A DNA stretch of 64,000 bases from Candidatus Tagabacteria bacterium (GTDB lineage Bacteria; Patescibacteriota; Minisyncoccia; GCA-002779875): assembly GCA_963820595.1 (NCBI GenBank), contig CAWGAO010000005.1:3853-67852 (forward strand). The letters are read 5' to 3'. Positions 1 to 34,772 of this stretch are shown here, one piece after another (positions within the stretch are counted from its first letter, which is position 1; each line of letters opens with the position of its first letter). A model generated the notes under the pieces. That model ran no database searches, was not told the origin of the DNA, and saw only the letters and a list, made by a program, of their open reading frames with translations. Made by a program: the position numbers and the translations under genes.

Positions 1-1
1 T

Positions 2-313
2 ATTTTATCCGTTTATGGATTTCCGGGCATGGCAGGAAATTCAAGTTATGACCCGAGCCGCATCGCCAGCCAGATTGTCGTCGGTATCGGTTTTATCGGC
101 GCGGGCATGATTATTCTAAGAGAAAATAAAGTGGAAGGATTGACGACCGCGGCCAGCGTCTGGACAACGGCCGCTGTCGCGATGGCCGTGGGTTTTGGTT
201 TTTATTTTGTCGCCATTTTTACCGCTCTTTTAGTTCTTGGAGTTTTGGAGGCTCTCGGTTTCCTGATAAAGAGAAGGTCTCTTAGGAATAAGAATGAACA
301 AGAGCAATCTTAA
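2..313 (+). CDS. MgtC/SapB family membrane protein (5' end cut by window edge)
   Basis: Frame is open to position 2. DPSRIASQIVVGIGFIGAGMIL and GLTTAASVWTTAA motifs are typical of the MgtC family. Confidence 0.7.
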   Translation: MLSVYGFPGMAGNSSYDPSRIASQIVVGIGFIGAGMIILRENKVEGLTTAASVWTTAAVAMAVGFGFYFVAIFTALLVLGVLEALGFLIKRRSLRNKNEQEQS

Positions 314-1430
314 AGGTATCGGAATGCTTGTCGGGATGATTTTCGGGGCAGGCGTTTTCGTCTTGCCTTTTGCCGTTGTTAAGGCGGGGATTTTTTGGGG
401 AATTTTGCATTTTTTTTTGGCGTTGATCTTGGTGATTTTTCTTCATCTTTGGTACGGAGAAGTTGCTTATTTTACAGAAGGGAAACATTGCTTTACCGGC
501 TATGCAAAAATACTGATAGGGGAAAGAGCTAAGTGGCCCGCTTTTTTAATCACGATTTTTACCGATTACGGCGCCTTGCTCGTTTACGGCCTTTTAGGCG
601 GGATATTCTTGGCAAACTTTTTTCATTTGCCGCCGATTATTTTATCTATTTTTGTTTTTGCGGGCGGGAGCATTCTTGTTTTGTTCCACTTTGAAAAAGT
701 CGCCAGCATTAATTTTTATCTTACCGTCGCTCTTTCGGGAATGGTTGCGGTTCTTTTCGTGATTGCTCTCCCTTATATTAAAATAGCCAACTTCCCAGTC
801 GGCAATTTAAAATTTTCTTTTTCTTCCGATTGGTTTTTGCCTTACGGTATTTGGTTATTTTCTCTGGCGGGATTTTCCGTATTGCCGGAGGTGCGCGACA
901 TTTTTTCAAAATACCCTATAAAAAATCTGAAGAGAGTCATTTTAATCAGTCTTTCATTGTGCGCTCTTTTATATTTGATTTTTATTTTTACGATTGTGGG
1001 CGTTAGCGGGAGGTTAACGACCAAAGACGCGCTTACGGGTATGACTAAAATTTTAGGCAGCCCTGCGCTTATAATCGGTTCACTTTTCGGCTTTTTGGCA
1101 ATTTTCACTTCTTTTATCGCGCTTGGTGCAGATTTGAAAAACATTTTCCGTTACGATTTCCATTTTCCGAAATGGCTGGCGTGGCTTAGCGTTGTTGTTC
1201 CGCCAATTGCGCTTTTCCTTTCGGGCGCGAAAAACTTCGTCGGCATCCTGGGAGTAATCGGTTCAGTCGGCCTCGGCCTTATAGGTATTTTTATCATTTT
1301 GATGGTAAGAAAAATAAGGCAAAAACGCGGGGAGAACGGGAGATTTTTAATATTAAGTTCGGTTGTCGGCATTTTAATTATGGCGGGGGTAATTGCGGCG
1401 GTTATTTCCGAAGTGCAGTCTTTGTTTTAG
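294..1430 (+). CDS. polytopic amino-acid permease-like transporter (Trp/Tyr-permease or APC-like)
   Basis: 378-aa ORF with about 11 hydrophobic helices. The N-terminal GMLVGMIFGAGVFVLPFAV resembles amino-acid transporter signatures. It overlaps the upstream gene by 20 nt. Confidence 0.45.
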   Translation: MNKSNLKGIGMLVGMIFGAGVFVLPFAVVKAGIFWGILHFFLALILVIFLHLWYGEVAYFTEGKHCFTGYAKILIGERAKWPAFLITIFTDYGALLVYGLLGGIFLANFFHLPPIILSIFVFAGGSILVLFHFEKVASINFYLTVALSGMVAVLFVIALPYIKIANFPVGNLKFSFSSDWFLPYGIWLFSLAGFSVLPEVRDIFSKYPIKNLKRVILISLSLCALLYLIFIFTIVGVSGRLTTKDALTGMTKILGSPALIIGSLFGFLAIFTSFIALGADLKNIFRYDFHFPKWLAWLSVVVPPIALFLSGAKNFVGILGVIGSVGLGLIGIFIILMVRKIRQKRGENGRFLILSSVVGILIMAGVIAAVISEVQSLF

Positions 1431-1473
1431 TTTGTCTTGACCGGCAGGACTATTTTTGCTAGCCTCGCAGTAG

Positions 1474-1526
1474 GCCCGCCCGCTTGGACTTCGTCCATGC
1501 GAAGTCGGGCGGGCTAGTTTTGTTTC
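1474..1526 (+). terminator. rho-independent terminator-like hairpin
   Basis: GCCCGCCCG(cttg)GACTTCG-tccat-CGAAGTCGGGCGGGC followed by TAGTTTTGTTTC. Confidence 0.5.
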
Positions 1527-1691
1527 TTTGAAAATAAAAAAGAAGAGGAAAGAGGAGAAAATAATAGAAAGATCAAAATTCAGACCGGCAAATTCCGGGA
1601 AAAACCCGTCCGAAAAAATATCGCAGGAAAGTCTTAGTTTCCCAAAGAGATTAGTTGAATTTCTGAAAAAAGCGACGAATAGGAGGGAGGA

Positions 1692-2975
1692 ATGAAAATC
1701 ATCGAGCGAAATGCTTCATCTAGTAATCTCAAGATTATTTTGGCGCCGAGGGCGGGCGCAGAATCGGTAACTGGAATTTTTGCGGTTCGCGCAGGCAGTA
1801 AATACGAAACAACCGAGAATAAAGGAATCGCGCATTTTTGGGAACACATGTCGTTTAAGGGCACGCAAAAACGGCCAACGCCTTTGGACATTACGAAGGA
1901 AATAGAGGGGCGGGGCGGAGATTACAACGCTTTTACTTCGAAAGAAATGACTTGGTATTACATAAAAATTCTTCCTAAGTATCTGGAAGTTGTTTGCGAC
2001 GTTCTCTCCGATATACTGCTGAATTCCGTTATCGACCCGGCAGAAATCGAGAAAGAAAAAGGGGTTATTGTCCAAGAGATCATGAGAGGCCAAGACGACC
2101 CCGAAAATTATGTTATTTCAAAAATGTGGCCCGAATTGCTTTACGGAGACCAGCCTGCCGGTTGGGATATTCTTGGCACCGAAGAAAGCGTTAAAGCGAT
2201 GACCAGAGAAAATTTCACGGAATTTTTGGGAAATCTTTACACTGACGAAAACGCCGTATTCTGTTTAGCGGGGAAAATATCGGACGAAGAAAAAGCATTC
2301 GCCGCAGTTAGTAATTTTTTTTGTGGAATCAGAAAAGGGAAGCTAAAAATCATAAAGCAGCTGACGACCGAAAAGCAGGAAAAACCGGCTCTTCTTGTGA
2401 AAGTTCAAGATACCCAGCAGAGCCATATTGTTTTGGGGGTAAGGGCTTGTAATATCTTTGACCCCAGAAAATACATCTTTCAGGTGCTAGACATTATTCT
2501 GGGCGGAAATACCTGCTCCCGTCTCTTTACGGAAATCAGGGAAAAAAGGGGTTTGGCATATGGCGTATATTCTTTTTTAAGCTGGCAATCGGACATCGGC
2601 TATCTTGCTACATCAACTGGCGTTAATAAAGAAAAAGCGGAAGAAACTGTAAAGGTCATCATTGATGAATGTAAAAAGCTTTGCGACGCTAAAGTTTCCG
2701 ACGAGGAACTGCAAAGAGCGAAAGATTGTCTTATCAGTTCTTCGAAGATGGATATGGAATCTTCTTATGGCGTTGCTTCTTTTGTCGCCAGGCAATGGGT
2801 ATACTACGACAAGATTTTTCCTCTTTCGGAAATAGCAAAAAAAATAGAAGCGGTTACGGCCGAAGATGTACAGACGGTTGCGCGGGAAATTTTTATAGAC
2901 AAAGGGTTGAATTTGGCCATCATCGGTCCTCATGCCGGTATGGAAGAAGAATTTTTGAAAATTCTCAAATTTTAA
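1692..2975 (+). CDS. M16 (pitrilysin/insulinase) family zinc peptidase
   Basis: HxxEH motif (AHFWEHMSFKGT) near the N-terminus. 427 aa. AGGAGGGAGG Shine-Dalgarno directly upstream. Confidence 0.85.
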   Translation: MKIIERNASSSNLKIILAPRAGAESVTGIFAVRAGSKYETTENKGIAHFWEHMSFKGTQKRPTPLDITKEIEGRGGDYNAFTSKEMTWYYIKILPKYLEVVCDVLSDILLNSVIDPAEIEKEKGVIVQEIMRGQDDPENYVISKMWPELLYGDQPAGWDILGTEESVKAMTRENFTEFLGNLYTDENAVFCLAGKISDEEKAFAAVSNFFCGIRKGKLKIIKQLTTEKQEKPALLVKVQDTQQSHIVLGVRACNIFDPRKYIFQVLDIILGGNTCSRLFTEIREKRGLAYGVYSFLSWQSDIGYLATSTGVNKEKAEETVKVIIDECKKLCDAKVSDEELQRAKDCLISSSKMDMESSYGVASFVARQWVYYDKIFPLSEIAKKIEAVTAEDVQTVAREIFIDKGLNLAIIGPHAGMEEEFLKILKF

Positions 2976-2977
2976 TA

Positions 2978-3010
2978 AAAATCCCGCGAGATGCAATCTC
3001 GCGGGATTTT
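2978..3010 (+). terminator. rho-independent terminator
   Basis: AAATCCCGCGAG-atgcaat-CTCGCGGGATTTT immediately after the stop codon. Confidence 0.75.
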
Positions 3011-3012
3011 AC

Positions 3013-3041
3013 TTGCCCACCCCCGATTTTTATTGTAAACT
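3013..3041 (+). promoter_or_regulatory. candidate sigma70-type promoter
   Basis: TTGCCC-17 nt-TAAACT, 35 nt upstream of the 3076 ORF. Confidence 0.3.
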
Positions 3042-3075
3042 TAAAATAACTGCAAATCGTCGTTACTAAATTTTA

Positions 3076-4224
3076 ATGTATAGCCATATGAAAAAAATTT
3101 TACTTTTGCTAAGTCTGTGTGCGATTTTTTTTCCTGCCTCGTCATTTGCTGCTTATTTTAAGACGGGCAGCGGCGTGTTCGTAAACTCGTCGGAAACAAT
3201 ACGGGATAATGTCTACGTTGTAGGCGGAAACGTAGCCGTCTCAAGCGCGATAGACGGAGATATTTTTGCGGCAGGCAGCATGCTTTTCATTTCCGGCAAA
3301 GAGAATGGGGATATTACGGCGGTCGGCGGAACCGTAAATATTGCCGGCGCATCGGCTGAAGACATCCGTCTTATCGGAGGAAACGTGACCATAGGAGGAA
3401 ATTTTAGCGGCGAAGTCATGGTAATCGGAGGGCAAATTATGGTTACGCCGGATACGCAAATCAAGAAAGATTCGCATATAATCGGGGGAATGCTCAGTTT
3501 TAGCGGGAACGCATCGGGCAATTTATCCATGTCGGGCGGGACGATATACATAAACGGCACCATTGAAAAAAATTTGACGATCAAAACCGCAAAAAAAGTG
3601 GTAATCGGTTCAGGCGCGGTGATAAAAGGCAATTTGGAATATTCCGCCCTCTCGGAAGCTTCCATTGAAGAGGGTGCGCAAATACTCGGGATTACCACAT
3701 TTCACAAAATAGAAAAGGCGGGCGCCGGCAGAAATTCCGGTGCTGTGTTCGGATTTTTATTCGGATTATTCGCCTTGTCGTATTTAATTAAATTATTATT
3801 GATTCTTACTGCCACTTATCTTCTGTGGTATATCTGGAGAAAGGATTCGGCTGATATCGTTCGGTTGGCAAAATCGCATTTCGGCCATTCTCTTTTCCGG
3901 GGATTTGTTTTTCTCGTCGCCGTGCCGGCGGCGGCCATTATATCTCTTGTCACCGTTATCGGGGCGTTCGCCGGATTATTCGGCCTTCTGCTCTATGCGG
4001 CAATTCTTATTCTTGCCGTTCCGGTTGCGGTGTTGCTCGCAGCTTCTTTACTTATGAAAAATAGGGCTGATTTCAAGTGGTTCCATATTCTTCTCGGCGC
4101 GGTAGTGTTAATGGCGGTAAACATAATTCCTTTCGTTGGCTGGATTGCCGCGCTAATTGTGTATCTTGCCGCGTTGGGAGCACTGCTTGGCGTTTTACGG
4201 CCCAAATTCCAGCGTTCCGCCTGA
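3076..4224 (+). CDS. membrane protein with signal peptide, bactofilin-like (polymer-forming) beta-helical repeats and a C-terminal multi-TM region
   Basis: N-terminal MKKILLLLSLCAIFFPASSFA. Repeated G-x-V/I-x-I-x-G units (GDITAVGGTVNIAG, IRLIGGNVTIGG, VMVIGGQIMV). Four to five C-terminal hydrophobic helices. Confidence 0.45.
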   Translation: MYSHMKKILLLLSLCAIFFPASSFAAYFKTGSGVFVNSSETIRDNVYVVGGNVAVSSAIDGDIFAAGSMLFISGKENGDITAVGGTVNIAGASAEDIRLIGGNVTIGGNFSGEVMVIGGQIMVTPDTQIKKDSHIIGGMLSFSGNASGNLSMSGGTIYINGTIEKNLTIKTAKKVVIGSGAVIKGNLEYSALSEASIEEGAQILGITTFHKIEKAGAGRNSGAVFGFLFGLFALSYLIKLLLILTATYLLWYIWRKDSADIVRLAKSHFGHSLFRGFVFLVAVPAAAIISLVTVIGAFAGLFGLLLYAAILILAVPVAVLLAASLLMKNRADFKWFHILLGAVVLMAVNIIPFVGWIAALIVYLAALGALLGVLRPKFQRSA

Positions 4225-4296
4225 TGTTGTTCTAGTGAAGTCAAAAAGTAATTAAAAAATCACAAACCACTATTCTATCGATATCGGACATCGATA

Positions 4297-4368
4297 GGCC
4301 TGAACTTGGCCGTTGTCGGCCCGCATAAGGGTATAGAAGAGGAATTTTTGAAGACTCTCAAATTTTAA
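4297..4368 (+). pseudogene. orphan 3' fragment (23 codons plus stop) of an M16 peptidase gene
   Basis: Translates to GLNLAVVGPHKGIEEEFLKTLKF*, compared with GLNLAIIGPHAGMEEEFLKILKF* at the end of the 1692-2975 gene. 57/72 nt are identical. No upstream coding continuation. Confidence 0.65.
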
Positions 4369-4378
4369 AAAAATAAAA

Positions 4379-4401
4379 ATGCCGCGATTTAATCACGGCA
4401 T
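4379..4401. terminator. weak bidirectional hairpin between convergent genes
   Basis: ATGCCG-cgatttaatca-CGGCAT flanked by an A-run and a T-run. Confidence 0.4.
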
Positions 4402-4411
4402 TTCTGTATTT

Positions 4412-5629
4412 TTAATCTTTTTTAAAGACGCCGTTTTCGTAGATTACGACAGTGCCTCCGGTTTTGAGATGAGCGGTCATTTTTTTTCTTTCGGTATTTA
4501 TCAAATCCCAATGGATAGCTGAATCATTGAATCCGATTTCCTTTTTCATTTTTTTCGTCAGTTCTTTCGGGTTGCCGCTGTAAGTATCGGAATAACTTGC
4601 GCCTACGGCGATATGGCAATTGCCTTCTTCGCCTCCGACATTTTCGTCAAACAGGGTATGGGCCATAAATTTGCGAATGGGCGAAAATCTTTTGTCGGTA
4701 AAAGATATTTCTCCGATACGCCCTGCTCCTTTATCCGTTGCCAGCATCTTTTTGACGAATTCTTCTCCTATTTTTGCATTTATTCCTACGGCATTCCCTT
4801 TTTTAAAGACCAATCGGACACCCTCAACGTAATTTCCCATTACAAATGACGGCATGTTGGCGTAATAAATTCCTTTCGTTCCCCGCCAGTCGGGAGAAGT
4901 AAAGATTTCAAAACTGGGAATATTGTGTCCGCTTACTCCCAGCCACTTTCTTTTTGAGCCGGGCGTTATCATAAGGTCGGTATTTTCGGATTCAATATGG
5001 AGATGGTCAATGTCTTCTTCGAGTTCGTTCAGCCATGTTTTTATGGCGATGCTTTCTTTGTATAATTTTTCCCATTCGGTTACCGGATTTTCCTTATCCA
5101 GATAACAGGCCCTGATAATCTCTTCGCCGTATTCTTCGACACTCATATTGGCTTTTTCCGCCAGGGCTTTGGTCGGCATCATGCAAAGAGTCCAGCCGAA
5201 TTCTCCCTTTTCCTCTCGTTTATTTCTGATTGTACATAAGAGTTTACCGACCCTTGCCGTAACGGCAAATTTCTTCGGGTCAATGCTCGATAAATGGGTA
5301 AGCGAAGCCGGCGCTCCTAGCCAGATAGAACCGTTCAAATGCTTGTAAAGTGTTTTATTCCAGGGCGCCAAAAATTTCAGCTGTTCTTCATTCGCCACGT
5401 CAAAAAAATCAAACTCCATTTTCGGAGTGTCGTCCATTTTCATTACTACATGAAATCCTTTTTCCAGCAGTTTCCGGTGTAAAATTTCGGCTAATTTCAG
5501 AGAATCGAGCTCGTAGCGAACAATAATAATGTCGCCCTTTTTGAATTCGCCACCCGTGGTTTTTCTGGCCGTTTCCAATCCCCAAATCAGGACGTCGGCA
5601 TATTTATTCAGTACGGTTTCGTCAAACAT
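4412..5629 (-). CDS. M29 family aminopeptidase (AmpS/PepS-like)
   Basis: 405-aa ORF with overall resemblance to thermophilic metalloaminopeptidase family M29 (from memory, not searched). GAAAGGAG SD upstream. Confidence 0.6.
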   Translation of the reverse strand: MFDETVLNKYADVLIWGLETARKTTGGEFKKGDIIIVRYELDSLKLAEILHRKLLEKGFHVVMKMDDTPKMEFDFFDVANEEQLKFLAPWNKTLYKHLNGSIWLGAPASLTHLSSIDPKKFAVTARVGKLLCTIRNKREEKGEFGWTLCMMPTKALAEKANMSVEEYGEEIIRACYLDKENPVTEWEKLYKESIAIKTWLNELEEDIDHLHIESENTDLMITPGSKRKWLGVSGHNIPSFEIFTSPDWRGTKGIYYANMPSFVMGNYVEGVRLVFKKGNAVGINAKIGEEFVKKMLATDKGAGRIGEISFTDKRFSPIRKFMAHTLFDENVGGEEGNCHIAVGASYSDTYSGNPKELTKKMKKEIGFNDSAIHWDLINTERKKMTAHLKTGGTVVIYENGVFKKD

Positions 5630-5668
5630 CTGTTTTTTCTCCTTTCAAACAACTAATAATCTGCGCGA

Positions 5669-5696
5669 ATTATAGCAAACAGTCAACTTTTGGCAA
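5669..5696 (-). promoter_or_regulatory. candidate promoter for the aminopeptidase gene
   Basis: On the minus strand: TTGCCA-16 nt-TATAAT, about 35 nt upstream of the SD/ATG. Confidence 0.45.
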
Positions 5697-5743
5697 GATT
5701 TGTGATATTCTTAAAATAATGCGTATCATTGCCGACCCCGCCC

Positions 5744-5840
5744 TAATTTTACGAGGTAGAACCATAGCGAGACGCTTCGCGCAAAAGGCCTGCCTGCCGG
5801 CAGGCAGGGATGCGCTATTCGCGCCCGCGCCTCGCGAGAC
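5744..5840. repeat. partial copy (H) of the GC-rich palindromic element core
   Basis: About 88% identical by eye to the reverse complement of 15197-15302. Contains ACCCCGCCCTAATTTTAC and the 20-bp perfect palindrome CCTGCCTGCCGGCAGGCAGG (5789-5808). Confidence 0.85.
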
Positions 5841-5920
5841 AGAATTAAGTTTCATTTTTTTTGTTTAAATTCAAATCCGTTTCCAACGGTAAAATTAAAG
5901 CGGGATTAAAGATTTTATTT

Positions 5921-7156
5921 ATGAAATTAATTGCCGACTTTCATATTCATTCAAAATATTCGCGGGCGGTTTCTCAAGATATGACCTTGGAGAATCTTGA
6001 TATTTGGGCGCGGAAAAAAGGAATTCAGGTGATGGGCACGGGCGATTTCACTCATCCCGCATTGGTTTAATGACATTAAAACAAAACTCGAACCGGCGGA
6101 GCCCGGACTTTAATCCGATATCCTAAAGTCGAACGAAGCGTCGGGACTAAATCAGACTTCGACGCGTTTTATGCTTACGGTCGAGATTTCCAGCATTTAT
6201 TCAAAAGGCGGAAAAGTACGGCGCGTGCATAATATTATTTTCTGCTCCATCTATTGAAACTGCGGAAAAAATTAATACAACTTTATCTTTAATCGGTAAT
6301 ATAAAAAGCGACGGCCGGCCTATTTTAGGCCTTGATTCGAAAAAACTTCTTCAGATAATTCTTGGAATTGACCCGAGATGCGTTTTAGTGCCAGCCCACG
6401 CCTGGACGCCGTGGTTTTCAATATTCGGCTCGATGTCCGGGTTCGATTCTATCGAAGAATGTTTTGAGGAATTGAGCGGAAACATTTTTGCCATTGAAAC
6501 AGGGCTTTCGTCGGACCCGGCAATGAATTGGCGGCTTTCAAAACTGGACAAAATCGCGCTAATTTCCAATTCCGATTCCCATTCGCCGCAAAAAATCGGC
6601 AGGGAAGCGAATGTTTTTGACTGCGAACTTTCCTATGACGGGATAATTGATGCAATCAAATCTCATGACCCTGAAAAATTTCTTTTCACTATTGAATTTT
6701 TCCCCGAAGAAGGAAAATATCATTACGACGGCCACCGGGCTCTGCAACGTTTCGATGTCGCCGGAAGAAACCAAAAAAAACAAAGGCATTTGTCCCGTTT
6801 GCCATCGGCCTTTGACTATCGGCGTTTTGTATCGGGTTGATCAAGTTGGCCGACAGACCGGTTGGAGAAGGCGGAAACGGAAAAATTCCTTTTCGAAATC
6901 TGATTCCTTTGAATGAAATTATAGCCGACATTTTTGGATTTGGCGTCGCTTCAATGGCAATTAGAAAGGAATACGAAAAACTTATCAACGCCGTCGGGAA
7001 TGAGTTCAAAATTTTACTGGATGCCGATTATCAGACGCTTAGCAGGGTAACTTCGCTGGCTATCGCCAGGGCATCGTCAGCGTACGCGAAGGGAAAGTCG
7101 AACTGATTCCCGGCTACGACGGCGAATACGGTAAAATTAAAATGTTTAAAGGATGA
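5921..7156 (+). pseudogene. endonuclease Q-like PHP-domain nuclease, multiply frameshifted
   Basis: Pieces lie in three frames. They are MKLIADFHIHSKYSRAVS..GTGDFTHP (5921-6070), PAHAWTPWFSIFGS..SDSHSP..GKYHYDGHRA (6388-6840), CPVCHRPLTIGVLYRV, 6837-7106, and the C-terminal IPGYDGEYGKIKMFKG* (TGA 7154-7156). At least 5 frame changes. Confidence 0.7.
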
Positions 7157-7198
7157 GAAGGAAAAAACAACCAGTCCCATCAATCCCGCCTCTTTTAG

Positions 7199-7394
7199 AA
7201 AAATAAGGAGCCCCGACGTAAGGCGGGACGACTATATTTTTCTTACCCCCTCACTCAAATTTTCATTTAGTTCCTAAGTAATTATTAAATTTAAAAATTA
7301 ATACTCGATTAAAAATGATTTTTTTGAGATAATTTTGATTATGAGTGAGGGGGTGCTCAAAATTATTATTCACTAACGTTCATATAATTTTGGC
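7199..7394 (+). repeat. modular palindromic intergenic element, copy A (M + long C5/G5 stem + M')
   Basis: M is GAAAAATAAGGAGC-ccgacgtaaggcggga-CGACTATATTTTTC (7199-7242). The stem is CCCCCTCACTCA (7246-7257) paired with TGAGTGAGGGGG (7342-7353). M' (7354-7394) ends at the ATG at 7395. Confidence 0.9.
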
Positions 7395-8054
7395 ATGAAT
7401 ATAAAAAAGTTTTTCTTGCCGATAAATAAAATTATTAAGGTTTTGATGTTGTCCGACTTTATTATTATTTCGGCTTTTGGGTTTGTGGCGCCGATTTTTG
7501 CCCTTTTTCTTACCGATAAAATTCAAGGCGGAACGATAGAAACCGTCGGTTATGCCGCGGCTATTTATTGGGTTGCGGCAGTTTTAACCCGTTTGCCTAT
7601 TGCCAGACGTATAGATAAAACCAAATCGGAAAAAGATGACTTCTATTTTATGATTTTCGGCTCTATTTTGATTGCTGTCGTGCCTTTTCTTTGGATTTTT
7701 AGCACTAAAATTTGGCATATTTATTGCATTGAAGCGCTTTACGGTTTGGGATATTCTTTGCGTCTTCCGGGTTGGTATGGTATGTTTACCCGCCATATCG
7801 ATAAGGGTCACGAAGGTTACGAATGGAGTTTCGATTCTTTGGTGTCCGGTGTCGGTTCCGGCATTACGGCGGCTTTGGGCGGAATTATGGCTGCAAGGAT
7901 GGGTTTCAATGCTTTATTCATTGTTATCGGAGCTCTTTCGATTATCGGTTCGGCTGTTTTAATTTTTCTTTATTATATCGTCGAGCCGGATCACCGGCGC
8001 AATGATAATATTCCGGGTTTAAGTTTAAATAATGATGGAGATAAAAAACAATAG
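7395..8054 (+). CDS. six-TM MFS-like half-size transporter
   Basis: 219 aa with six hydrophobic helices. The loop motif RLPIARRIDK resembles the MFS D-R-x-G-R-K-type loop. Confidence 0.4.
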   Translation: MNIKKFFLPINKIIKVLMLSDFIIISAFGFVAPIFALFLTDKIQGGTIETVGYAAAIYWVAAVLTRLPIARRIDKTKSEKDDFYFMIFGSILIAVVPFLWIFSTKIWHIYCIEALYGLGYSLRLPGWYGMFTRHIDKGHEGYEWSFDSLVSGVGSGITAALGGIMAARMGFNALFIVIGALSIIGSAVLIFLYYIVEPDHRRNDNIPGLSLNNDGDKKQ

Positions 8055-8069
8055 GAACCCGGCTCATCT

Positions 8070-8098
8070 TTGCGAATAAGAAAATAAAATAGTATACT
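8070..8098 (+). promoter_or_regulatory. candidate promoter
   Basis: TTGCGA-17 nt-TATACT, 30 nt upstream of the ATG at 8128. Confidence 0.4.
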
Positions 8099-8127
8099 AT
8101 TTTATATCCTCATTAATTAATCATTTT

Positions 8128-8931
8128 ATGAAAAAGTTTTTTTTCTTTCTTATAATGTTCGGTTTAATAATCGGCGGAATCGATTGGCTTTTAAGACCGG
8201 ATGCCGTTCTGGGCATTACGTCTTCGACAGGTTTTTATATTAACGGTTATGTTAAGGATCAGTTGGGCAACGGCATACCCGGGGTGATTATCACGGTTCC
8301 AGAGGCTCAGGAAAATTCCGATTCTTGCCCGAAGGCCATGCCGGCTTTTTCAACCGCTACCACAAACGGGAATGGCTATTACGCTCTAATGGTGGTGACC
8401 GAGGGCGGAGGATGGACGGGAGCGTGTAATTATATTACGGTTAAAATTTCAAAACCGAACTGCACATTTGTTTCTCCTCAGCGACTTTTGCTTCAGAGTC
8501 CGCGCATAAATATCAATGGAACCTGCGTTAAACCTCCGCCGGTTTCGACATCTACTCCTTCTACTTCTCAGGTTACCGGCTTTGCGACTTCTACCGCAAC
8601 GATTGCCACCTCCGCTTTGCTGCCCGGCGAGTGTATTAATTGCGGCACGAATGAACGCATTTCGTTGGAGACGGGGCAGGAAAAAACCTATGTTGCGAAA
8701 ATAGAGAATTCTACGCTGACATCCCTGCGGGTGGAGGTTGTTGGTTTGACCAACGGGACATACGCCGAGATTTCTTTGATATTTCCGGACGGCCGCGTTT
8801 TTCCGACCGGAGCAACGGGTCAAAATCACGTTATAGGCGTTTCCTCGAATGGTACCGTGGATATTCGGACTCAAAAGAATCCTCAAGGCGGCAATGTTTC
8901 CGACCAGTACCTGCCGGCCAGGATTTTATAA
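8128..8931 (+). CDS. secreted/anchored hypothetical protein with carboxypeptidase-regulatory-like beta-sandwich and Ser/Thr-rich linker
   Basis: N-terminal hydrophobic helix. GYVKDQLGNGIPGVIITV motif. PPVSTSTPSTSQVTGFATSTATIATS linker. Confidence 0.4.
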   Translation: MKKFFFFLIMFGLIIGGIDWLLRPDAVLGITSSTGFYINGYVKDQLGNGIPGVIITVPEAQENSDSCPKAMPAFSTATTNGNGYYALMVVTEGGGWTGACNYITVKISKPNCTFVSPQRLLLQSPRININGTCVKPPPVSTSTPSTSQVTGFATSTATIATSALLPGECINCGTNERISLETGQEKTYVAKIENSTLTSLRVEVVGLTNGTYAEISLIFPDGRVFPTGATGQNHVIGVSSNGTVDIRTQKNPQGGNVSDQYLPARIL

Positions 8932-9338
8932 CCTGAAAATAAAAGCGCTGACTGCCAGCAAGGTCCGTCTCAGCAGTTTCACAACACTAAAATTATACAA
9001 GCCCCAGTAAAATATTTTTCCTTAAAAAAATCCCTTTCGGGTTACCCAAGGGGATTTTTTATAAATAAAATGGCCCCGCTTTTGGCAGGGCCTTGTTTGA
9101 TTTAGAATATTTTAAAAGACCAATGGTATGAAAAAGAAGAACAAGGAAAGGCAAAAGCCACGGTATGATAAGTGCTCTGACAAAACAAGCGTTTGTAAGT
9201 GAGCCTAATTGGGGCTCGCCTTTCTTCAATCTCTATTTTCCAAAAACAGAAATCTACTTTAAGAATACGTCAATGGCAGAAATAAACAACTTCAAATAGT
9301 AAAGGTGGATAATTTTTTATGTTATCATATAACTACCA

Positions 9339-11114
9339 ATGAAAAACGAAGAAATCGCAAAAATACTTTACGAAATGGCGCTTTATTTGGAAATAAAAGA
9401 AGCGCCTTTTAAGCCGCGCGCATATGAAAAAGCGGCTCAGTCCGTAGAAGCTCTCGGAGAAGACGTTGGCGATATTTATAAAAAAGGAGGATTAAAAGCA
9501 GTTGAAGAAATTCCCGCGATAGGAAAAGGCATCGGCGAAAGAATCGAGGAATATTTGAAAACCAGCCATATCAAAGATTACGAAAAATTAAAAAAGCAGA
9601 TACCAGTTGACATACAGGCCCTTTCGGAAATAGAGGGCGTCGGTCCGAAGCTGATAAAACTTTTTTACCAGAAACTGAAAATAAAAAATATCGGCGATTT
9701 GGAGAAAGCGGCAAGAGCGGGGAAATTGGCGAAATTGCCGCGCAGCGGCGAACGCCTGCAGGCAAAAATTTTAAGCGGAATAGAGTTTTACAAGCGTTCC
9801 CAATCCAGATTTTTACTGGGTTCCGTTTTACCTTTGGCTCAAGAAATCGAAGCGCGCCTGCAGAAGGTCAAAAGCGTTGCAAAGGCTGCCACCGCCGGTT
9901 CGGTGAGGAGAAGACAGGAAACAATCGGCGATTTGGACTTTTTGGTCGTTTCTCCGAAACCCGAAGAAGTGACGAAGTTTTTCGTTTCAATGCCCGAAGT
10001 TGCTCATATTCTCGCAAAAGGCCCCACAAAAACGATGGTTCAGCTTAAAGGCGGAATCGGAGCGGATTTGCGGGTGGTGGATAAAAAATCTTTCGGCGCC
10101 GCCCTCCAATATTTTACCGGCAACAAAGACCACAACATAGCATTGAGAAAAATCGCGATTAAGCACGGCTGGAAACTTAATGAATACGGAATCTTTTCGG
10201 CCCAAGGCCGATCCGCCTCGGGCGGAAAGGGCCGATGGAAGCAGATTGCCGGCGAAACAGAAGATGGCGTATACAAAAAACTTGGAATGAATTGGGTGCC
10301 TCCGGAAATTCGGACGAACAGCGGGGAGATAGAAGCGGCTCAAAAACATAAACTGCCGAAATTGATAATGCCGAAAGACATCAAGGGTGATTTACAGGTT
10401 CACAGCAATTGGACCGATGGTTCGAATTCAATCGAGGAGATGGCGACTGCCGCCTATAAACTCGGTTATCAATATATTGCCATTACCGACCATACGAAAG
10501 ATTTGGCGATGACGCACGGCAACGATGAGAAGAAACTGCTCAAAGAGATGGCTGCGATAGAAAAAATAAATGAAAAATTTTGGAAAAAAGGAGAGTTCAG
10601 AATTTTAAAAGGAGCGGAAGTAAATATCAGGAAAGACGGCTCGCTTGATATTAAAGATGAAGTTTTGGCGAAACTTGACGTTGTCGGCGCGGCGGTTCAT
10701 TCCTATTTTAATATTATGAAAGACGAACAAACCAAAAGACTAATCAGGGTGATAGAAAATCCGCATGTTGATATTATTCTGCATCTGACCGGCCGTTTAA
10801 TACAAGAACGGCAGGGGATTGAATTTGACGAAGACGAAGTTTTTGAAGCGGCGAAAAAAACCGGAACAATATTTGAAATAAACGCGTGTCCGAACCGGCT
10901 TGATTTGAGCGATGAGCATATCCGCCGCGCAAAGAATATGGGTATAAAGATGTCCATCGGCACGGATTCGCACGCAGCGCACGAATTTTTGTACATGTCT
11001 TATGGCGTTAGTCAGGCCCGCCGCGGCTGGGTCGAGAAAAAAGATGTTATCAATACGTTTTCTTTGGAAGAAATTTTGGAATTTTTGAAGAAGCCGAAAA
11101 GTAAGAGGTTTTGA
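9339..11114 (+). CDS. polX: family X DNA polymerase with C-terminal PHP domain
   Basis: 591 aa. N-terminal HhH region ([16 protein letters not shown]), pol-beta-like core ([17 protein letters not shown]) and a PHP region ([12 protein letters not shown] .. GTDSHA). Confidence 0.9.
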
Positions 11115-15095: not shown

Positions 15096-15302
15096 TTTTA
15101 TTATGAGCGGAGCGAATTATAAAAATGAGCACCCCGCTCTAATTTTACCGTTAAAATCAAAATTGTCATTTATTGAACTAAAGAACCTATTTTAATCTCG
15201 CGAGGTGCGGGCGCGAATAGCGCATCCCTGCCTGCCGGCAGGCAGGCTTTTAGCGCGAAACGCCTCGCCGTTGTTCTATCTTGTAAAATTAGGGCGTGGG
15301 TT
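15096..15302 (-). repeat. modular palindromic intergenic element, copy G (between infC and rpmI)
   Basis: M' abuts the rpmI ATG (sense: GGGGTGCTCATTTTTATAATTCGCTCCGCTCATAATAAAAATG). Outer stem is 15130-15148 paired with 15283-15302 (CCCCGCTCTAATTTTAC / GTAAAATTAGGGCGTGGG). The GC-rich core carries CCTGCCTGCCGGCAGGCAGG (15227-15246). Confidence 0.9.
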
Positions 15303-16269: not shown

Positions 16270-16614
16270 TGGAGATGGCGAGATTTGAACTCGCGTCAAG
16301 AAGTTAAATGCATTATCGTCTACAAGCTTGTTTCGGTTGAATAAGATTGCGGTTAGAACCGAAAGAAAAACGCAAAATTTTTCCTTCTTTTTAGTCGCTC
16401 TATATCGAAGGTTTATAGAGTCTAGCCCGATAATGACGTCTCGGTCTTTCTATCGTGCATCAAAAGAGAGACGGCTTTTGCTTAAATTTTAAGCAAAAGC
16501 GTAAGCAGGTTGATTCACTGCATTTACATTTGTTGAACGGATTTTAAAGAGGTAACCGATCATCCTCTGCCTGCGAATAACGCATTTTGACTCCCTTCGA
16601 AGCCTTTCATCCCC
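16270..16614 (-). ncRNA. ssrA: tmRNA (SsrA)
   Basis: 5' end GGGGAUGAAAGGCUUCGAAGGG, 3' end GACGCGAGUUCAAAUCUCGCCAUCUCCA. The acceptor stem has a G3:U pair. Tag ORF GCA GUG AAU CAA CCU GCU UAC GCU UUU GCU UAA encodes AVNQPAYAFA*. A helix (GCUUUUGCUUAAA/UUUAAGCAAAAGC) spans the stop. It lies next to smpB. Confidence 0.85.
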
Positions 16615-23881: not shown

Positions 23882-25509
23882 ATGATAAGAGATATTTTGT
23901 CGAGACGAAATTAGAAAAGGCGCTTAAAGCTCTTTATCCGGATATTGCTTATCCCGAAATTTCTGTTATCCGGAACGAGAATCCCGTTTTCGGAGATTAT
24001 GGCTTTGCCGTGATTGCTTTGGCTTCAAGAATAGGCAAGAATCCAAGAGAGATTGCCGAAGAATTTAAAGAGAAAATTTCGGCTTCGTCAAAAATCAGCC
24101 GCTATGTTTCAAAAATTGAAGTCGCCGGTCTGGGCTTTTTGAATTTTTGGCTTTCGGAAAAAGGTCTAGAAGAAGGATTAAAGAATCTAGACAAAAAGTT
24201 TACCCGCCAAGGGCGGGAAAAAATTTCCCTCGATTATCTTGATGCCAACCCGACCGGGCCGGTTCATTTGGGTCATGCCAGAAGCGGTTTTTATGGCGAC
24301 GTTTTGGCTAATATTTTGGAATTTTACGGCCATAAAGTTTCGAGGGAATTTTACGTCAATAACGCAAAATCGAGTCGGTACAAATTCAATCTCTTGGAAA
24401 AACAGCATTGGGGCAGGGGGAAGAATACAAGCACGAACAGCTTTTGAAAATTTTGGAAAAGCCGGAAGTAAAAAAGAAATTAAAAACGTTCAAGGAAGTA
24501 AAAGAGGCGAGTTTGCTCGCCGAAGCTTCAGCGAAGGCGGGATTTTATATCGCAGGATTGATTCAAAAAGAAAACGAAAAATTTTTGAAAAAATGTCGCC
24601 AAAATAAAATTTGATTTATTTTTTGAGGAGGAAAAAGTTTATTCATCGGGTAAGGTAAAAGAAATCATTGAAAAACTAAAGAAAGCAGACGTGACGTATG
24701 AAAAAGACGGCGCTTTGTGGTTTAAATCAACGCAATACGGCGATAGTGAAGACAAGGTGATTATAAGAAGCACGGGCGAGCCGACTTATTTTGTGCCGGA
24801 CATATATTATCATTTGGACAGGTTGATTAAGAGAAAGAACGACAAAGTTATCAATATATTCGGCGCTGACCATTACGGCGCCATTGCCAGAGTAAAAGGC
24901 GCTTTGGCGGCTTTGGGAATTGATACAGAAAAAATAGTTTATCTTTTGGTCCAGATGGTGCGCTTGATAAAAGGCGGCGAAGAGCTGAAAATGCAAAAAA
25001 GAAAAGGCGTGTTCGTGACCTTGGAAGAATTGATTAAAGATGTTGGCCTGGACGCTGCAAGGTTTTTCTTTCTAATGCGGTCGTTGGATACGCATTTGGA
25101 TTTTGATTTGGATTTGGCGAAGGAGCGTTCCAAAAAGAATCCGGTTTATTATGTCCAGTATGCCCATGCCCGGGCGTGTTCGATAATAAGAAAGTCAAAA
25201 GTCTCCGTCCGAGGCGGATTCGTCTTCAGCGGAAAAATTCAAAATTCAAAAGAGAGAAATTTAATTTTAAAACTCATCCAATTTCCGGAAGTTGTTGAAG
25301 ACATCGCCAAAGATTATCAAGTTCATCGCTTAACGACTTACGCATACGAATTCGCGCAGGTTTTTACGGATTTTTACGAAAATGTTCCGGTTTTGACTGC
25401 CGAAACGGAGGAACTGAAAAAATCCCGCCTTGTCTTGGTTTCCATTGCCAGAAAAATTTTAGAGAGAAGTCTATCATTGATGGGTATTTCCGCTCCGGAG
25501 AAGATGTAG
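23882..25509 (+). pseudogene. argS: arginyl-tRNA synthetase, at least 3 frameshifts
   Basis: Fragments are 23882 (MIRDILS), 24010-24447 (NPTGPVHLGHARSG, a HIGH-type motif), 24408-24614, and 24691-25509 (GADHYG..., C-terminal anticodon-binding part ending ISAPEKM*). Confidence 0.85.
25477..25508 (+). repeat. 32-bp direct repeat, copy 1 (native argS 3' end)
   Basis: TTGATGGGTATTTCCGCTCCGGAGAAGATGTA. The second copy at 26453-26484 differs at 1 nt. Confidence 0.95.
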
Positions 25510-25685: not shown

Positions 25686-26309
25686 ATGGGAAAGAAGAAT
25701 GTAAGTTTGGTTGTTTCTGGGGCAGGGTGGCTTGCGAGTTTTGCTGATGGATTCATTATTAAGGCTCTTCGCGAGCGCGGGGTTTCGGACGAGGCAATCC
25801 ATAGCCTTGCAACCGAAGGTGACGAATTAACGATTGGCAAGATTGAGGACGCGCTTGCTGAAGTTGAACAACGGGCGAAAAATATTTTTCGTCTTATGGT
25901 CGGTGAAAACCGTACCACAGAAGAAGTGGTCAAAGCGGGGAAATATGACTGGGTCAATAATTATGTAACCGGTAGGAACTTCCCGATGAGATCAAGGGCT
26001 GGCGGTAAGGTTACGATTGAACTCGTTGATTTCGGCCGAGACATATCTTCGGAGGAAGCGATTAAGAAAGCGCGCAGGCGCGGATTTGAACGACCTTCTT
26101 ATGAAGACGCCTTGTTTTTCGGGGAGCAGTTTCCTGAGAAGCAAAGAGAACGACCGATCATTTTTCTGCACGAACCCTGGCAGGAGGACCCGGACTGTCT
26201 TCCTTTCGTGCTTGTTCTCTACGGCTGGTCCTCGCAACGCCGCCTGTACTTGTGCTGGTTTGCCGCTGAGTGGTGTCGCGACTACGTGTTTGCTTTCGTC
26301 CGCAAGTAG
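25686..26309 (+). CDS. hypothetical protein (cargo 1 at the argS/dedA junction)
   Basis: 207-aa ORF with a strong SD. Visibly GC-richer than its neighbours. Has its own promoter and terminator. Confidence 0.45.
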   Translation: MGKKNVSLVVSGAGWLASFADGFIIKALRERGVSDEAIHSLATEGDELTIGKIEDALAEVEQRAKNIFRLMVGENRTTEEVVKAGKYDWVNNYVTGRNFPMRSRAGGKVTIELVDFGRDISSEEAIKKARRRGFERPSYEDALFFGEQFPEKQRERPIIFLHEPWQEDPDCLPFVLVLYGWSSQRRLYLCWFAAEWCRDYVFAFVRK

Positions 26310-26366: not shown

Positions 26367-26388
26367 GCCCCTTGGTTTTTAGCGAGGG

Positions 26389-26448
26389 TTTTTTTATTTT
26401 TAAATGTCGTTTGGAAACTAAGTCTCCAATTTATTTTTTCGTCAGATG
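26389..26448 (-). pseudogene. decayed duplicate of the dedA 3' end plus its downstream sequence
   Basis: About 85% identical to 27064-27122 (TTTTTTATTTTTAAAT[G/C]TCGTTTGGAAACTAAG[T/C]CTCC...). The remnant has an in-frame stop. Confidence 0.8.
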
Positions 26449-26452
26449 GTCC

Positions 26453-26484
26453 TTGATGGGCATTTCCGCTCCGGAGAAGATGTA
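26453..26484 (+). repeat. 32-bp direct repeat, copy 2 (orphan argS 3' end)
   Basis: TTGATGGGCATTTCCGCTCCGGAGAAGATGTA. 31/32 identical to 25477-25508. It ends in TAA where the native copy has TAG. Confidence 0.95.
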
Positions 26485-26508
26485 AGGAGGGGTTTTTATA
26501 ATTTGAAG

Positions 26509-26569: not shown

Positions 26570-27013
26570 ATGGGCAGTAAACCCAAGCAAATACAAAATT
26601 CAAAAGGCGTACAAATGCATTTTGCTGTCGGGGCGGTGATTGAAGTCGCCGGAAAATATTTATTGATTGACCGCGACATGGAGCCATTCGGCTTTGCCGG
26701 AATTGCCGGTCATATTGACGAAGGAGAAACTCCCGAAGAAGCACTTTTCCGCAAAGTAAAAGAAGAGAGCGGCTTAAAAATTGAAAGCTATTCCTTGCTT
26801 TTTGAAGAAGAAGTTGAATGGAATTGGTGCAGAGTAGGAATCCAATCTCACTATTGGTATATGTATAAATGCGAAGTTGAAGGGAAGGCGCAAAATAATC
26901 CGGAAGCATCTAAGTCTATCGGATGGCATACTACGGAGGAGATTAGAACATTAAAAATGGAGCCGGTATGGAAATACTGGTTTGAAAAACTAGGCATTTT
27001 AACAAAAACGTAA
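26570..27013 (+). CDS. NUDIX hydrolase (cargo 2 at the argS/dedA junction)
   Basis: Nudix box GHIDEGETPEEALFRKVKEESGL (GX5EX7REUXEEXGU). AAGGAGG SD. Confidence 0.85.
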   Translation: MGSKPKQIQNSKGVQMHFAVGAVIEVAGKYLLIDRDMEPFGFAGIAGHIDEGETPEEALFRKVKEESGLKIESYSLLFEEEVEWNWCRVGIQSHYWYMYKCEVEGKAQNNPEASKSIGWHTTEEIRTLKMEPVWKYWFEKLGILTKT

Positions 27014-27040: not shown

Positions 27041-27070
27041 ATCCGTTGGCACATCGCAACGGATTTTTTA
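27041..27070. terminator. bidirectional rho-independent terminator
   Basis: ATCCGTTG-gcacatcg-CAACGGAT followed by T6. Confidence 0.75.
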
Positions 27071-27091
27071 TTTTTAAATCTCGTTTGGAAA

Positions 27092-27747
27092 CTAAGCCTC
27101 CGAGTTGTTTTTTTGTCGGATGCCCCGCAGAAATTCAATAATAGCGGGCAGGATTGAAATGATAATGATAGCGAAAATAACCAAAGAAAAATTTTGTTTG
27201 ATTAGCGGAATATTTCCGAAATAATATCCGCCGAAAATGAAAAGCGCCGGCCAGGTTATGCCGCCAATAATATTGTAGCTGATGAAACGCCAATAACTCA
27301 TTTGTCCGATGCCCGCGACAAACGGCGCGAAAGTGCGGATAATAGGAATGAAGCGGGCGATAATAATCGTTTTTCCGCCGTGTTTTTCATAAAATTGATG
27401 GGTGCGCTCCAGATATTTCTTATTTAAAAAACGGAGATTTTCTTCTGTGAGAATATTTTCGGGCCGACAAAACGGCCTAGCCAATAATTTACAGTGTCGC
27501 CCAAAACAGCCGCGAGAGCCAAAATAATGAAAAGCCAAACTACATTGAAAGAGCCGACGGCCGCGAAAGCGCCGGCGGCAAAAAGGATGGAATCGCCCGG
27601 CAGAAACGGAATTACAACCAGTCCGGTTTCGCAGAAAATAATCAGAAAAAGAAGCGAATAAGTCCAAGCCCCGTATATTTGAATAATCGCGCCCAAGTGT
27701 TTGTCGAGATGGAGTGCAAAACTGATAATCGTTTTTATTAAATCCAT
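27092..27747 (-). pseudogene. dedA: DedA family membrane protein, one frameshift near 27435
   Basis: The N-terminal fragment 27424-27747 (..[22 protein letters not shown]..) and the C-terminal fragment ([35 protein letters not shown]..) are in different frames. Confidence 0.8.
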
Positions 27748-34560: not shown

Positions 34561-34772
34561 AAAAATAATGAGCCCTGCCTGCCGGCAGGCAGGGAAGCGA
34601 CTATATTTTTCTTAACCCCCATCTTTTACACCCGACCATTTTAAGGTTAATATTAAAGATATTCTATGATGCAAACTTTTATGCAAACTTCAATGTTGTA
34701 TATATTCTGGTCGGTGTTAAAAGAGGGGGTGATAATTTTATAAAATTCACTTCGTTCGCTAGTAAAATTATC
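34561..34772 (+). repeat. modular palindromic intergenic element, copy C
   Basis: M is AAAAATAATGAGC-CCTGCCTGCCGGCAGGCAGG-GAAGCGACTATATTTTTC. Stem is CCCCCATCTTTTACACCCGACCA (34616-34638) paired with TGGTCGGTGTTAAAAGAGGGGG (34708-34729). M' runs to ATG 34773. Confidence 0.9.

Follow-up and report, generated by a model that had tools for sequence, protein, structure and literature searches.

Homology-facilitated illegitimate recombination (HFIR) during natural transformation was described for Acinetobacter, Streptococcus pneumoniae, and Pseudomonas stutzeri (de Vries & Wackernagel, 2002; Prudhomme et al, 2002; Meier & Wackernagel, 2003, all via PMC5361080; see also PMC3240628); microhomology of 3-10 bp at the illegitimate joint is the usual case. 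HFIR was also proposed to account for displaced gene ends analogous to the one considered here (PMC5361080). C-terminal displacement in rhs genes results in orphan CDI/Rhs tips (Jackson et al, 2009; PMC2935791), and arrays of orphan immunity genes are known from the type VI secretion (T6SS) clusters of Vibrio cholerae (Kirchberger et al, 2017; PMC5361080). A further process is insertion with long target duplication, the cases of which come for the most part from species with natural competence (Nobusato et al, 2000; Furuta et al, 2010; PMC2853133). The repeats it generates are direct, longer than 30 bp, and single-copy in the genome lacking the insert; some overlap the 3′ end of a gene, and the two copies are near-identical, e.g., at 44 of 46 positions (PMC2853133).

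Hardly any Patescibacteria have been cultured, and the routes by which genes enter and leave their small genomes are little understood. Saccharibacteria, which also belong to the Patescibacteria, are naturally competent (PMC10187176; PMC10633639). The locus described here lies in a stretch of 64,000 nucleotides from Candidatus Tagabacteria bacterium (contig CAWGAO010000005.1; hereafter, the window). It carries the stranded 3′ end of a peptidase gene, which is a new instance of an established kind of recombination scar, informative but ordinary.

Results

The 3′ end of an M16 peptidase gene recurs behind a membrane-protein gene

The left part of the locus is composed of the following features (positions are those of the window):

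29-313, plus strand, MgtC-like gene (Pfam)
294-1430, plus strand, permease gene of the Trp/Tyr permease family (Pfam)
1692-2975, plus strand, intact gene for an M16 (pitrilysin-type) peptidase, 427 aa (Pfam Peptidase_M16 and M16_C)
2904-2975, plus strand, repeat copy 1, formed by the final 23 codons and the stop codon of the intact M16 gene (pairwise repeat)
2978-3010, plus strand, terminator hairpin (15-bp stem, -23.6 kcal/mol) that follows the intact M16 gene and has an identical counterpart in relative L085
3012-3087, plus strand, upstream/promoter region travelling with the membrane gene, homologous to the region after the permease gene of relative L094
3088-4224, plus strand, gene for a DUF8173/bactofilin-like membrane protein, 378 aa (the ORF opens at 3076, homologues start at 3088)
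4225-4296, no strand, spacer between the end of the L085-type homology (4222) and the start of the L092-type homology (4297/4301), with the putative illegitimate joint at its right edge
4297-4368, plus strand, orphan M16 tail, 23 codons and stop without a start, truncated left end of an L092-like block

The last 23 codons and the stop codon of the intact M16 gene matched positions 4297-4368 at 57 of 72 nucleotides, in one ungapped register and without indels. Both copies are in frame up to a TAA codon (GLNLAIIGPHAGMEEEFLKILKF at 2904-2975 and GLNLAVVGPHKGIEEEFLKTLKF at 4297-4368) and share 18 of 23 amino acids. When the 72-mer was compared with all other positions of the window on both strands, the mean was 18.7 identities (sd 3.9) and the next-best position reached 39/72. 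The match is, thus, ∼10 sd out and not due to chance; the repeat reported in the initial annotation is real, and the similarity withstands the comparison with chance on which that annotation had made itself dependent. A repeat search extended the pair to 78 nt of 79% identity (2903-2980 and 4296-4373, direct, spacing 1393 nt), which places it among the two longest direct repeats of the whole window. A second M16 paralogue of the window (38304-39587, 37% identical) was rejected as the source of the tail, its C-terminus being unrelated.

The 15 differences between the copies fall on codon positions 1, 2, and 3 in the ratio 4/2/9 (P = 0.03 for nine or more at position 3). Seven codons changed synonymously and five changed the residue (I>V, I>V, A>K, M>I, and I>T). 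Among random sets of 15 substitutions, only 0.04% were free of stop codons and had five or fewer residue changes (P ∼0.0004). The differences between the copies look like coding divergence, and their previous characterization as mostly third-position or conservative was accurate.

Homology to M16 ends abruptly upstream of 4296/4297, leaving a fragment with one clean edge and no internal indels. No start codon was found for the orphan frame, and two in-frame stops lie between the upstream gene and the fragment. A search of positions 1-9000 against Rfam yielded only sub-threshold chance matches (His_leader with 30 bits versus a gathering threshold of 49, snoRNA, and miRNA). Because it has no start codon, follows two in-frame stops, and matches no RNA family, we conclude that the orphan tail is inert and non-functional. 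The only part in use is probably its terminator. The tail forms part of the membrane-gene 3′ untranslated region, which extends to the hairpin at 4375-4405, and its proper annotation is that of a pseudogene remnant rather than a gene or regulatory element.

The tail is continuous with an M29 block of another allele type

Relatives were taken from contigs encoding M16 orthologues (52-74% identical) and homologues of the M29 and membrane proteins (loci L081-L097). The best protein matches bore names of Patescibacteria (Portnoybacteria, Wolfebacteria, and Minisyncoccia); searching genome contigs with the M16 protein returned only distant M16 proteins (30-41%, mostly Bacteroidota) and no useful relatives. 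To the right of the orphan tail, the window contains:

4375-4405, no strand, bidirectional terminator hairpin, T-rich on both sides, orthologous to the M16-M29 hairpin of L092
4412-5629, minus strand, gene for an M29 aminopeptidase, 405 aa (Pfam Peptidase_M29, E = 7e-108)
5630-5737, no strand, stretch between the M29 and MJ0043_C genes, containing the native promoter of MJ0043_C and the initial 18 nt of its ORF, right end of the uninterrupted L092-like block
∼5921-7200, plus strand, MJ0043_C-like gene, frameshifted (Pfam)
7395-8054, plus strand, MFS transporter gene (Pfam)
9339-11114, plus strand, gene for a PolX-type polymerase (Pfam of collinear relatives and tblastn)

In L092, an intact M16 gene stands tail-to-tail with an M29 gene, 45 nt apart and with a homologous hairpin between them. 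Window positions 4301-5735 aligned with this locus in unbroken collinearity (84.6% over 1446 nt), from 68 nt before the M16 stop, via the hairpin, M29, and the intergenic region (76 of 88 bases matching), to the start of the MJ0043_C gene. The M29 protein, whose gene is missing from L085, is 86% identical to that of L092, and the orphan tail agrees with the C-terminus of L092 M16 (GLNLAVVGPHKGMEEEFLKILKF) at 21 of 23 amino acids and 58 of 72 nucleotides. Orphan tail, hairpin, and M29 gene are, thus, one truncated copy of an M16/M29 tail-to-tail junction. At only ∼85% identity to the block, L092 represents the donor type and not the donor itself. The two residues at which the orphan differs from L092 M16 (M>I and I>T) are kept by nearly all intact M16 orthologues, as expected for decay after stranding. 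Within the tail, ∼4 informative sites are shared exclusively with the L085 allele and four to five with that of L092, so that a stretch of 72 nt is too short to be placed by such sites.

Taken with the coding-type divergence, the collinearity with L092 bears out the initial view of the fragment as the stranded 3′ end of a diverged M16 gene that had evolved as coding sequence in another allele. The same annotation had suggested that peptidase followed by hairpin in a relative would represent the empty site. This order does exist (M16 stop, homologous hairpin, and M29 in L092) but is more likely the donor configuration.

The membrane gene had been credited with a terminator of its own. What was found at this position is a weak palindrome (CTATCGAT-ATCGGAC-ATCGATAG, 9 bp, ∼4274-4298, -8.8 kcal/mol) without a T-run. 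Downstream of the membrane gene, no real terminator precedes the hairpin that accompanies the orphan tail. As the gene's own palindrome lacks a T-run, the imported hairpin at 4375-4405 probably acts as the membrane-gene terminator now, in addition to ending the M29 transcript. The spacer 4225-4296, compared with the window and with every fetched locus including L085 and L092, gave no significant match. A relation of the spacer to the membrane-gene terminator in L094 and L095 was considered and dropped, only "AAACCAC" and a hairpin being in common.

The slot between permease and MJ0043_C genes varies among relatives

The interval between the permease and MJ0043_C genes had nine different contents in ten related genomes:

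L090/L091, M16 only
L089, M16 and a 115-aa ORF
L082, M16 and a 265-aa ORF
L083/L084, M16 and a cation-efflux gene
L085, M16, membrane gene, and a 119-aa ORF (where the window has 4223-5702)
L092, M16 tail-to-tail with M29
L093, M29 only, next to the permease gene (the contig ends just beyond)
L094, membrane gene and two ORFs, no M16
L095, membrane gene and five other genes, no M16
Window, M16, membrane gene, M16 tail, and M29

No second M16 tail was present in L081-L096; only L097 has such tails, and L085, L090, and L092 contain one copy each. Pfam and PADLOC scans assigned no family to the small ORFs of the slot. Neither a recombinase or transposase gene nor a tRNA or Rfam family was found in or beside the segment; the window as a whole contains no tRNA and only a tmRNA at 16270-16614. 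In L094 and L095, a ComEC-type gene (DUF4131 and Competence domains) is located ∼5-6 kb upstream of the permease gene.

The window is collinear with L085 from position 1 to 4222, where the alignment ends within the stop codon of the membrane gene. The membrane protein (a weak Bactofilin match in the window copy; PF26514, i.e., DUF8173, on its homologues) is 91% identical in L085, 85% in L094, and 71% in L095, and its gene is resident in the same slot of all three. Window 3012-4220 matched 8926-10133 of L094, which lacks M16, at 87% (blastn); in L085, the gene, its upstream region, and the preceding M16 terminator are all present at ∼93% nucleotide identity. The membrane gene and its junction to M16 are, therefore, shared with L085 by descent. 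The initial annotation had regarded the membrane gene as inserted accessory DNA that left the tail behind; given its presence in L085 and its occupation of the same slot in L094 and L095, insertion of this gene as the source of the tail is probably wrong, a statement on polarity drawn from the comparison of relatives.

The intact M16 gene itself departs from this pattern. Its body (∼1740 to 2940-2966) is a divergent allele between flanks ∼90-97% identical to L085: M16 shares 57% of its amino acids (∼65% of nucleotides) with the L085 protein, compared with 84-94% for the neighboring genes (94% for MgtC and 84% for the permease). The M16 frame was swapped for a distant allele in either the window or the L085 lineage. 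Both breakpoints of the swap lie inside conserved gene ends, the right one inside or at the end of the repeat. Because the intact allele was itself replaced relative to L085, at least two events took place at the locus. The C-terminal 23 amino acids of M16 are 85% identical pairwise among alleles versus 63% for the rest of the protein. As a test for an attachment site, the fraction of identical codons at conserved M16 residues was determined; with 0.56 in the tail versus 0.52 in the rest, no constraint on the DNA of the tail beyond that on the protein was found.

Short L092-type patches in an L085-type backbone

Which side of the junction came in was addressed by scoring the window at sites where L085 and L092 differ:

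5690-6000, L092-like or mixed
6150-7200 (MJ0043_C body), L085-like
7350-7950 (MFS), L092-like
7950 onward, including PolX, L085-like

The switch from L092-like to L085-like sequence takes place within ∼300 nt of the MJ0043_C gene after 5737. A MITE-like insert with a 9-bp duplication is present at 5736-5926 of the window.

As a second measure, the fraction of identical codons at conserved residues was used. Between window and L092, it was 0.71 for M29, 0.83 for MFS, 0.585 for PolX, and 0.52 for an ABC gene; saturation for M29, as estimated from L093, corresponds to 0.42-0.47. Between window and L085, it was 0.78 for the permease, 0.87 for the membrane gene, and 0.70 for PolX. Based on the informative sites and the codon fractions, the window has an L085-type backbone with short L092-type patches, among them the orphan tail and M29, which are both missing from L085. 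Since the tail is continuous with an L092-like M29 block in an L085-like backbone, it more likely came in together with M29 than was left by insertion of the membrane gene. For Bacillus, multiple donor patches close to each other, the pattern observed here, are reported to result from single transformation events (PMC13344027).

Scars of the same type occur elsewhere

The initial annotation had likened the M16 tail to the argS/dedA junction, and the tail copies found there support the likeness. The argS 3′ end (25474-25509) has a second copy at 26450-26486, the only differences being TAG>TAA and two synonymous changes, and the dedA 3′ end with its terminator (27043-27122) recurs at 26369-26448 (80%), abutting the argS tail copy. 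The resulting order is argS, a 207-aa ORF, terminator, dedA tail, argS tail, NUDIX gene, terminator, and dedA, i.e., two alternative slot contents joined through a ghost junction. NUDIX and VTT (DedA) were the only families that the Pfam and PADLOC scans detected at this locus. A protein-level search of the whole window (63 genes) for other orphan gene ends returned the M16 and argS cases only.

Among the relatives, L095 has a 4-kb insert with an orphan MJ0043_C promoter and the first 107 nt of that gene on its upstream side and the intact gene on its downstream side. L097 contains two M16 tails, 93.5% identical to each other and each preceding a small ORF, and no intact M16 gene; five of the six differences between these tails are synonymous. 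The arrangement in L097 is an array of the form tail-ORF92-tail-ORF97.

An L092-type piece of DNA may have brought M29 and left the tail

It is proposed, with a confidence slightly better than even, that a piece of L092-type DNA brought M29 into the locus and left the M16 tail as a scar, by HFIR. The recipient would have had the L085-type order of permease, M16, terminator, DUF8173 membrane gene, variable slot, MJ0043_C, MFS, and PolX genes, and the donor lineage, of the L092 type, M16 and M29 tail-to-tail with one common bidirectional terminator. The incoming piece would have begun 72 nt before the donor M16 stop, comprised the terminator and M29, and ended in the 5′ region of MJ0043_C. On the right, it would have recombined homologously with the MJ0043_C region of the recipient, and its left, non-homologous end would have been joined illegitimately ∼72 nt behind the resident membrane gene. 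The most plausible route of entry would be natural DNA uptake. As a result, M29 would have been gained, the occupant of the slot replaced, and the M16 tail carried along into the 3′ untranslated region of the membrane gene. What is shown directly is the repeat, its coding-type divergence, the collinearity with L085 on one side and L092 on the other, the abruptness of the left joint, and the mosaic nature of the backbone; the direction of transfer, its completion in one step, and uptake by transformation are inferred.

Several observations count against an import of M29. The spacer 4225-4296 matches neither L085 nor L092 nor the other fetched loci, L092 is no closer to the block than ∼85%, and the replaced M16 allele points to at least two events at the locus; furthermore, M29 adjoins the permease gene in L093, as does the membrane gene in L094 and L095. 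Both genes are, thus, old residents of the slot in different lineages, which leaves some room for the opposite polarity. In that case, which is possible but rather unlikely, the window lineage originally had M16-M29 as in L092, and an incoming piece with permease/M16, terminator, and membrane gene displaced the resident 3′ end. The left side would have been joined by homology, and the other by an illegitimate joint 72 nt before the resident M16 stop or by a single crossover of a circular intermediate within the conserved tail, the latter being the published model for Rhs tips (PMC2935791). Consistent with such a displacement, the membrane gene is framed by two tails 1393 nt apart, M29 occurs by this neighborhood in L092, L093, and the window, and the intact M16 allele is foreign with respect to L085 and has its right breakpoint in or at the end of the repeat. 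However, the backbone on both sides (permease, membrane gene, MJ0043_C, and PolX) is L085-like, and the tail with M29 forms a short patch whose similarity to L092 exceeds that of the backbone. Moreover, L085 has the identical junction between M16 terminator and membrane gene without any tail, and the left flank contains no L092-like remnant.

M29 import in one step also has to be weighed against a history in two steps, in which recombination first placed another M16 copy, large or even complete, behind the membrane gene and deletions later trimmed it to 72 nt. A precedent for such trimming exists in L097, where an orphan tail keeps GGGMSSRMFI, a motif from the interior of M16, in fusion with the last 28 codons; this copy must once have comprised at least ∼150 codons, the middle of which was lost by deletion, and the main M16 body of L097 is gone as well. 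The fragment in the window, in contrast, has a single clean edge and no internal indels, and a full second M16 gene at its position, which according to the initial annotation would have pointed to simple gene decay, was found in no relative. Two-step trimming is, therefore, considered improbable.

That the assembler joined two co-occurring related genomes is very improbable, despite the fact that all sequences compared are metagenome contigs, that L085 and L092 originate from one sample, and that the junction is known from assembly. Several genes of the window are frameshifted, and an independent Logan contig (L099), which is 100% identical to window 1592-2996, ends at 2996, short of the junction. 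A chimera is at odds with the position of the joint, which does not lie at shared sequence and has the unique 72-nt spacer between its parts, and with the return of L085-like sequence to the right of M29. Furthermore, neither part is identical to L085 or L092, and like scars occur in independent assemblies (L095 from NCBI and L097 from JGI).

Orphan M16 tails in two lineages (the window and L097) might suggest that the M16 3′ end is an attachment site for site-specific integration, with the two tails as attL and attR at the borders of an integrated element or cassette array; conservation within M16 is also highest in the tail, which includes the palindrome AGAATTTTTGAAAATTCT. Nevertheless, this is highly improbable: neither an integrase nor a transposase gene lies in or near the segment, conservation of the tail exists at the protein level only (synonymous identity 0.56 vs 0.52), and the copies are identical over no more than ∼12-13 consecutive nucleotides. 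A second tail is missing from seven further versions of the slot, both occupied and empty, and the scars in argS, dedA, and MJ0043_C involve unrelated sequences. A duplication of the M16 3′ end in situ followed by drift, to which the direct orientation of the copies 1.4 kb apart would correspond, is practically excluded, as the initial annotation had also held for a recent one, by the coding-type divergence expected so rarely under random substitution, the different terminators of the two copies, and the collinearity of copy 2 with the M16-M29 junction of L092.

Discussion

The locus provides a dated, base-resolved example of exchange in Patescibacteria: at conserved gene ends, entire alleles are exchanged, and one-sided recombination may add accessory genes and leave short, stranded ends of genes behind. 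Such scars could be mined systematically as markers of the direction and frequency of DNA exchange, and they fit the idea that DNA uptake shapes the genomes of Patescibacteria. It is a very doubtful notion that the conserved M16 tail is a preferred entry point of cassette exchange in this clade, with small genes stacked behind it that each bring or leave a tail. If it were true, the system would be an analogue of rhs tip arrays or integrons that works without an integrase or with a recombinase acting in trans, and the peptidase and the stacked genes might be functionally linked.

Among known systems, the locus differs from integrase-borne islands. Such elements carry a tyrosine or serine recombinase gene in or by the segment, whereas only the DUF8173 gene lies between the repeats, with M16, M29, and permease genes as neighbors; the att-type DNA conservation beyond protein constraint that would be expected is likewise absent from the M16 tail (0.56 vs 0.52). 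The edges of 2976-4368 display neither attC with an integrase, as in integron cassettes, nor the terminal inverted repeats and target-site duplication of insertion sequences and MITEs. Insertion with long target duplication is similar in outcome, in that genes without mobility functions are flanked by direct repeats longer than 30 bp (78 nt in the window) that are single-copy elsewhere (one copy in L085, L090, and L092). In place of near-identical copies of one target, however, the copies here are 79% identical, differ in a coding-type manner, are followed by different terminators, and represent two alleles; the "duplication" was, thus, assembled from two genomes.

With the immunity-gene arrays of the V. 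cholerae T6SS clusters, the locus shares mix-and-match modules in a fixed slot between conserved genes, the retention of relics, and HFIR as the proposed mechanism. It differs from them in that no effector or immunity function is evident, the slot being occupied by a membrane protein, an aminopeptidase, a cation-efflux protein, and small ORFs without a family. The likeness to displaced rhs tips lies in the repetition of a conserved gene part downstream, as a silent and degenerating fragment, upon the addition of laterally acquired DNA: the orphan opens with sequence homologous to the conserved part of the upstream gene (57/72 nt and 18/23 aa). Even arrays of such fragments have a counterpart, in L097. 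A displaced rhs piece, in contrast, contains a variable toxin tip with its cognate immunity gene, whereas the parent here is M16, the displaced or co-transferred part is a conserved metallopeptidase tail without an alternative tip or toxin/immunity logic, and the next gene is the convergent M29.

In mechanism, the locus matches HFIR, in which recipient DNA between one homologous anchor and one abrupt non-homologous joint is replaced and no mobile-element genes are involved, with the difference that the event described here is reconstructed from metagenome contigs alone. The segment is absent from the closest relative, L085, and found in its native context in the more distant L092. One of its ends merges into the homologous backbone, with the switch between ∼5700 and 6150, and the other is an abrupt joint, at which homology to L085 extends to 4222 and homology to L092 begins at 4297-4301.

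Orphan gene ends at argS/dedA and in related genomes

At the argS/dedA locus, two gene ends are present twice in the window. The argS 3′ end (25474-25509) recurs at 26450-26486 with synonymous changes only, and a segment comprising the terminator and the 3′ end of dedA (27043-27122) recurs at 26369-26448, the dedA copy containing an in-frame stop. The duplicate dedA tail and the duplicate argS tail meet at 26448/26450. The gene order is as follows:

argS
25686-26309, 207-aa ORF of no family
terminator
dedA tail
argS tail
26570-27013, NUDIX gene
terminator
dedA

The argS/dedA junction is a second scar (a stranded gene end), of the same type as the orphan M16 tail, the 3′-end copy of the M16 peptidase gene at 4297-4368.

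Orphan gene ends were also observed in two further relatives. In L095, an orphan copy of the MJ0043_C promoter and of the 5′-most 107 nt of its ORF (10207-10338) is located downstream of the terminator of the membrane gene, followed by a 4-kb insert and then by the intact MJ0043_C gene. The insert contains:

CYTH
dCMP deaminase
two unknown ORFs
methyltransferase

In L097 (reverse strand), two orphan M16 tails of 139 and 94 nt were found (1425-1563 and 1921-2014, in reverse-complement coordinates), each with a small ORF lacking a family behind it (92 and 97 aa, respectively); an internal M16 motif is fused to the second tail. Intact M16 and the permease gene are both absent from this contig.

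Allelic replacement of M16 and fine-scale mosaicism

Comparing the M16 reading frame (1740-2966) with that of the closest relative (L085, 8050-9285) yielded only 57% amino acid and about 65% nucleotide identity, whereas the flanks are about 90-97% identical, the distant allele comprising the M16 frame alone. Both breakpoints lie within conserved gene ends, namely the first ∼20 and the last ∼23 codons. The difference is a whole-gene allelic replacement. Among the M16 alleles sampled, mutual identity was just 55-74%, irrespective of how similar the flanks were. A contig (L099) from an independent Logan assembly of run ERR10755944 matches 1592-2996 at 100% identity; its ends fall 100 nt upstream of the M16 start codon and 21 nt beyond the stop, so both contig breaks coincide with the edges of the M16 module, which could reflect either strain variation there or low coverage. 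Within the module, the conserved EEFLKIL codons (2946-2963) form an 8-bp inverted repeat (AGAATTTTTGAAAATTCT), shared by several alleles and probably due to codon bias in an AT-rich genome. The permease-M16 intergenic region carries a GC-rich hairpin (GGCCCGCCCGCTTGGACTTCGTCCATGCGAAGTCGGGCGGGC; 1473-1515), which is missing from the corresponding place in L085.

The MFS gene (7350-7950) is 92% identical to L092 (the relative with intact M16 tail-to-tail with M29) at the nucleotide level, versus 78% to L085, and 94% identical to L089 at the amino acid level. It is a second L092-like patch within an L085-like backbone, which indicates fine-scale mosaicism. A promoter-like block of 39 nt that contains TATAAT and the ATG precedes two unrelated genes, that of the MFS transporter (7359-7397) and that of ribosomal protein L11 (19115-19153), with 97% identity between the two copies.

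Interrupted reading frames and a MITE-like element

The MJ0043_C-like gene (5921-7200), right border of the variable slot, contains at least five single-base indels compared with L085, none of them at homopolymers. Likewise, argS (24010-25509) is broken into several ORFs, and fragmented genes also occur in L092. The frame breaks in both genes represent either true pseudogenes or assembly errors.

The MJ0043_C-like ORF is also interrupted, 18 nt in, by a GC-rich element of ∼190 nt with a palindrome (5736-5926), the insertion showing a direct repeat of 9 bp (ATTGCCGAC). At 5700-5737 the gene retains its native promoter and its start, and a new ATG at 5921 reopens the ORF. Other copies are:

15133-15299, reverse strand, 80%
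34571-34604
731-836 of L085

Together these copies make up a small repeat family, and the element resembles a MITE.
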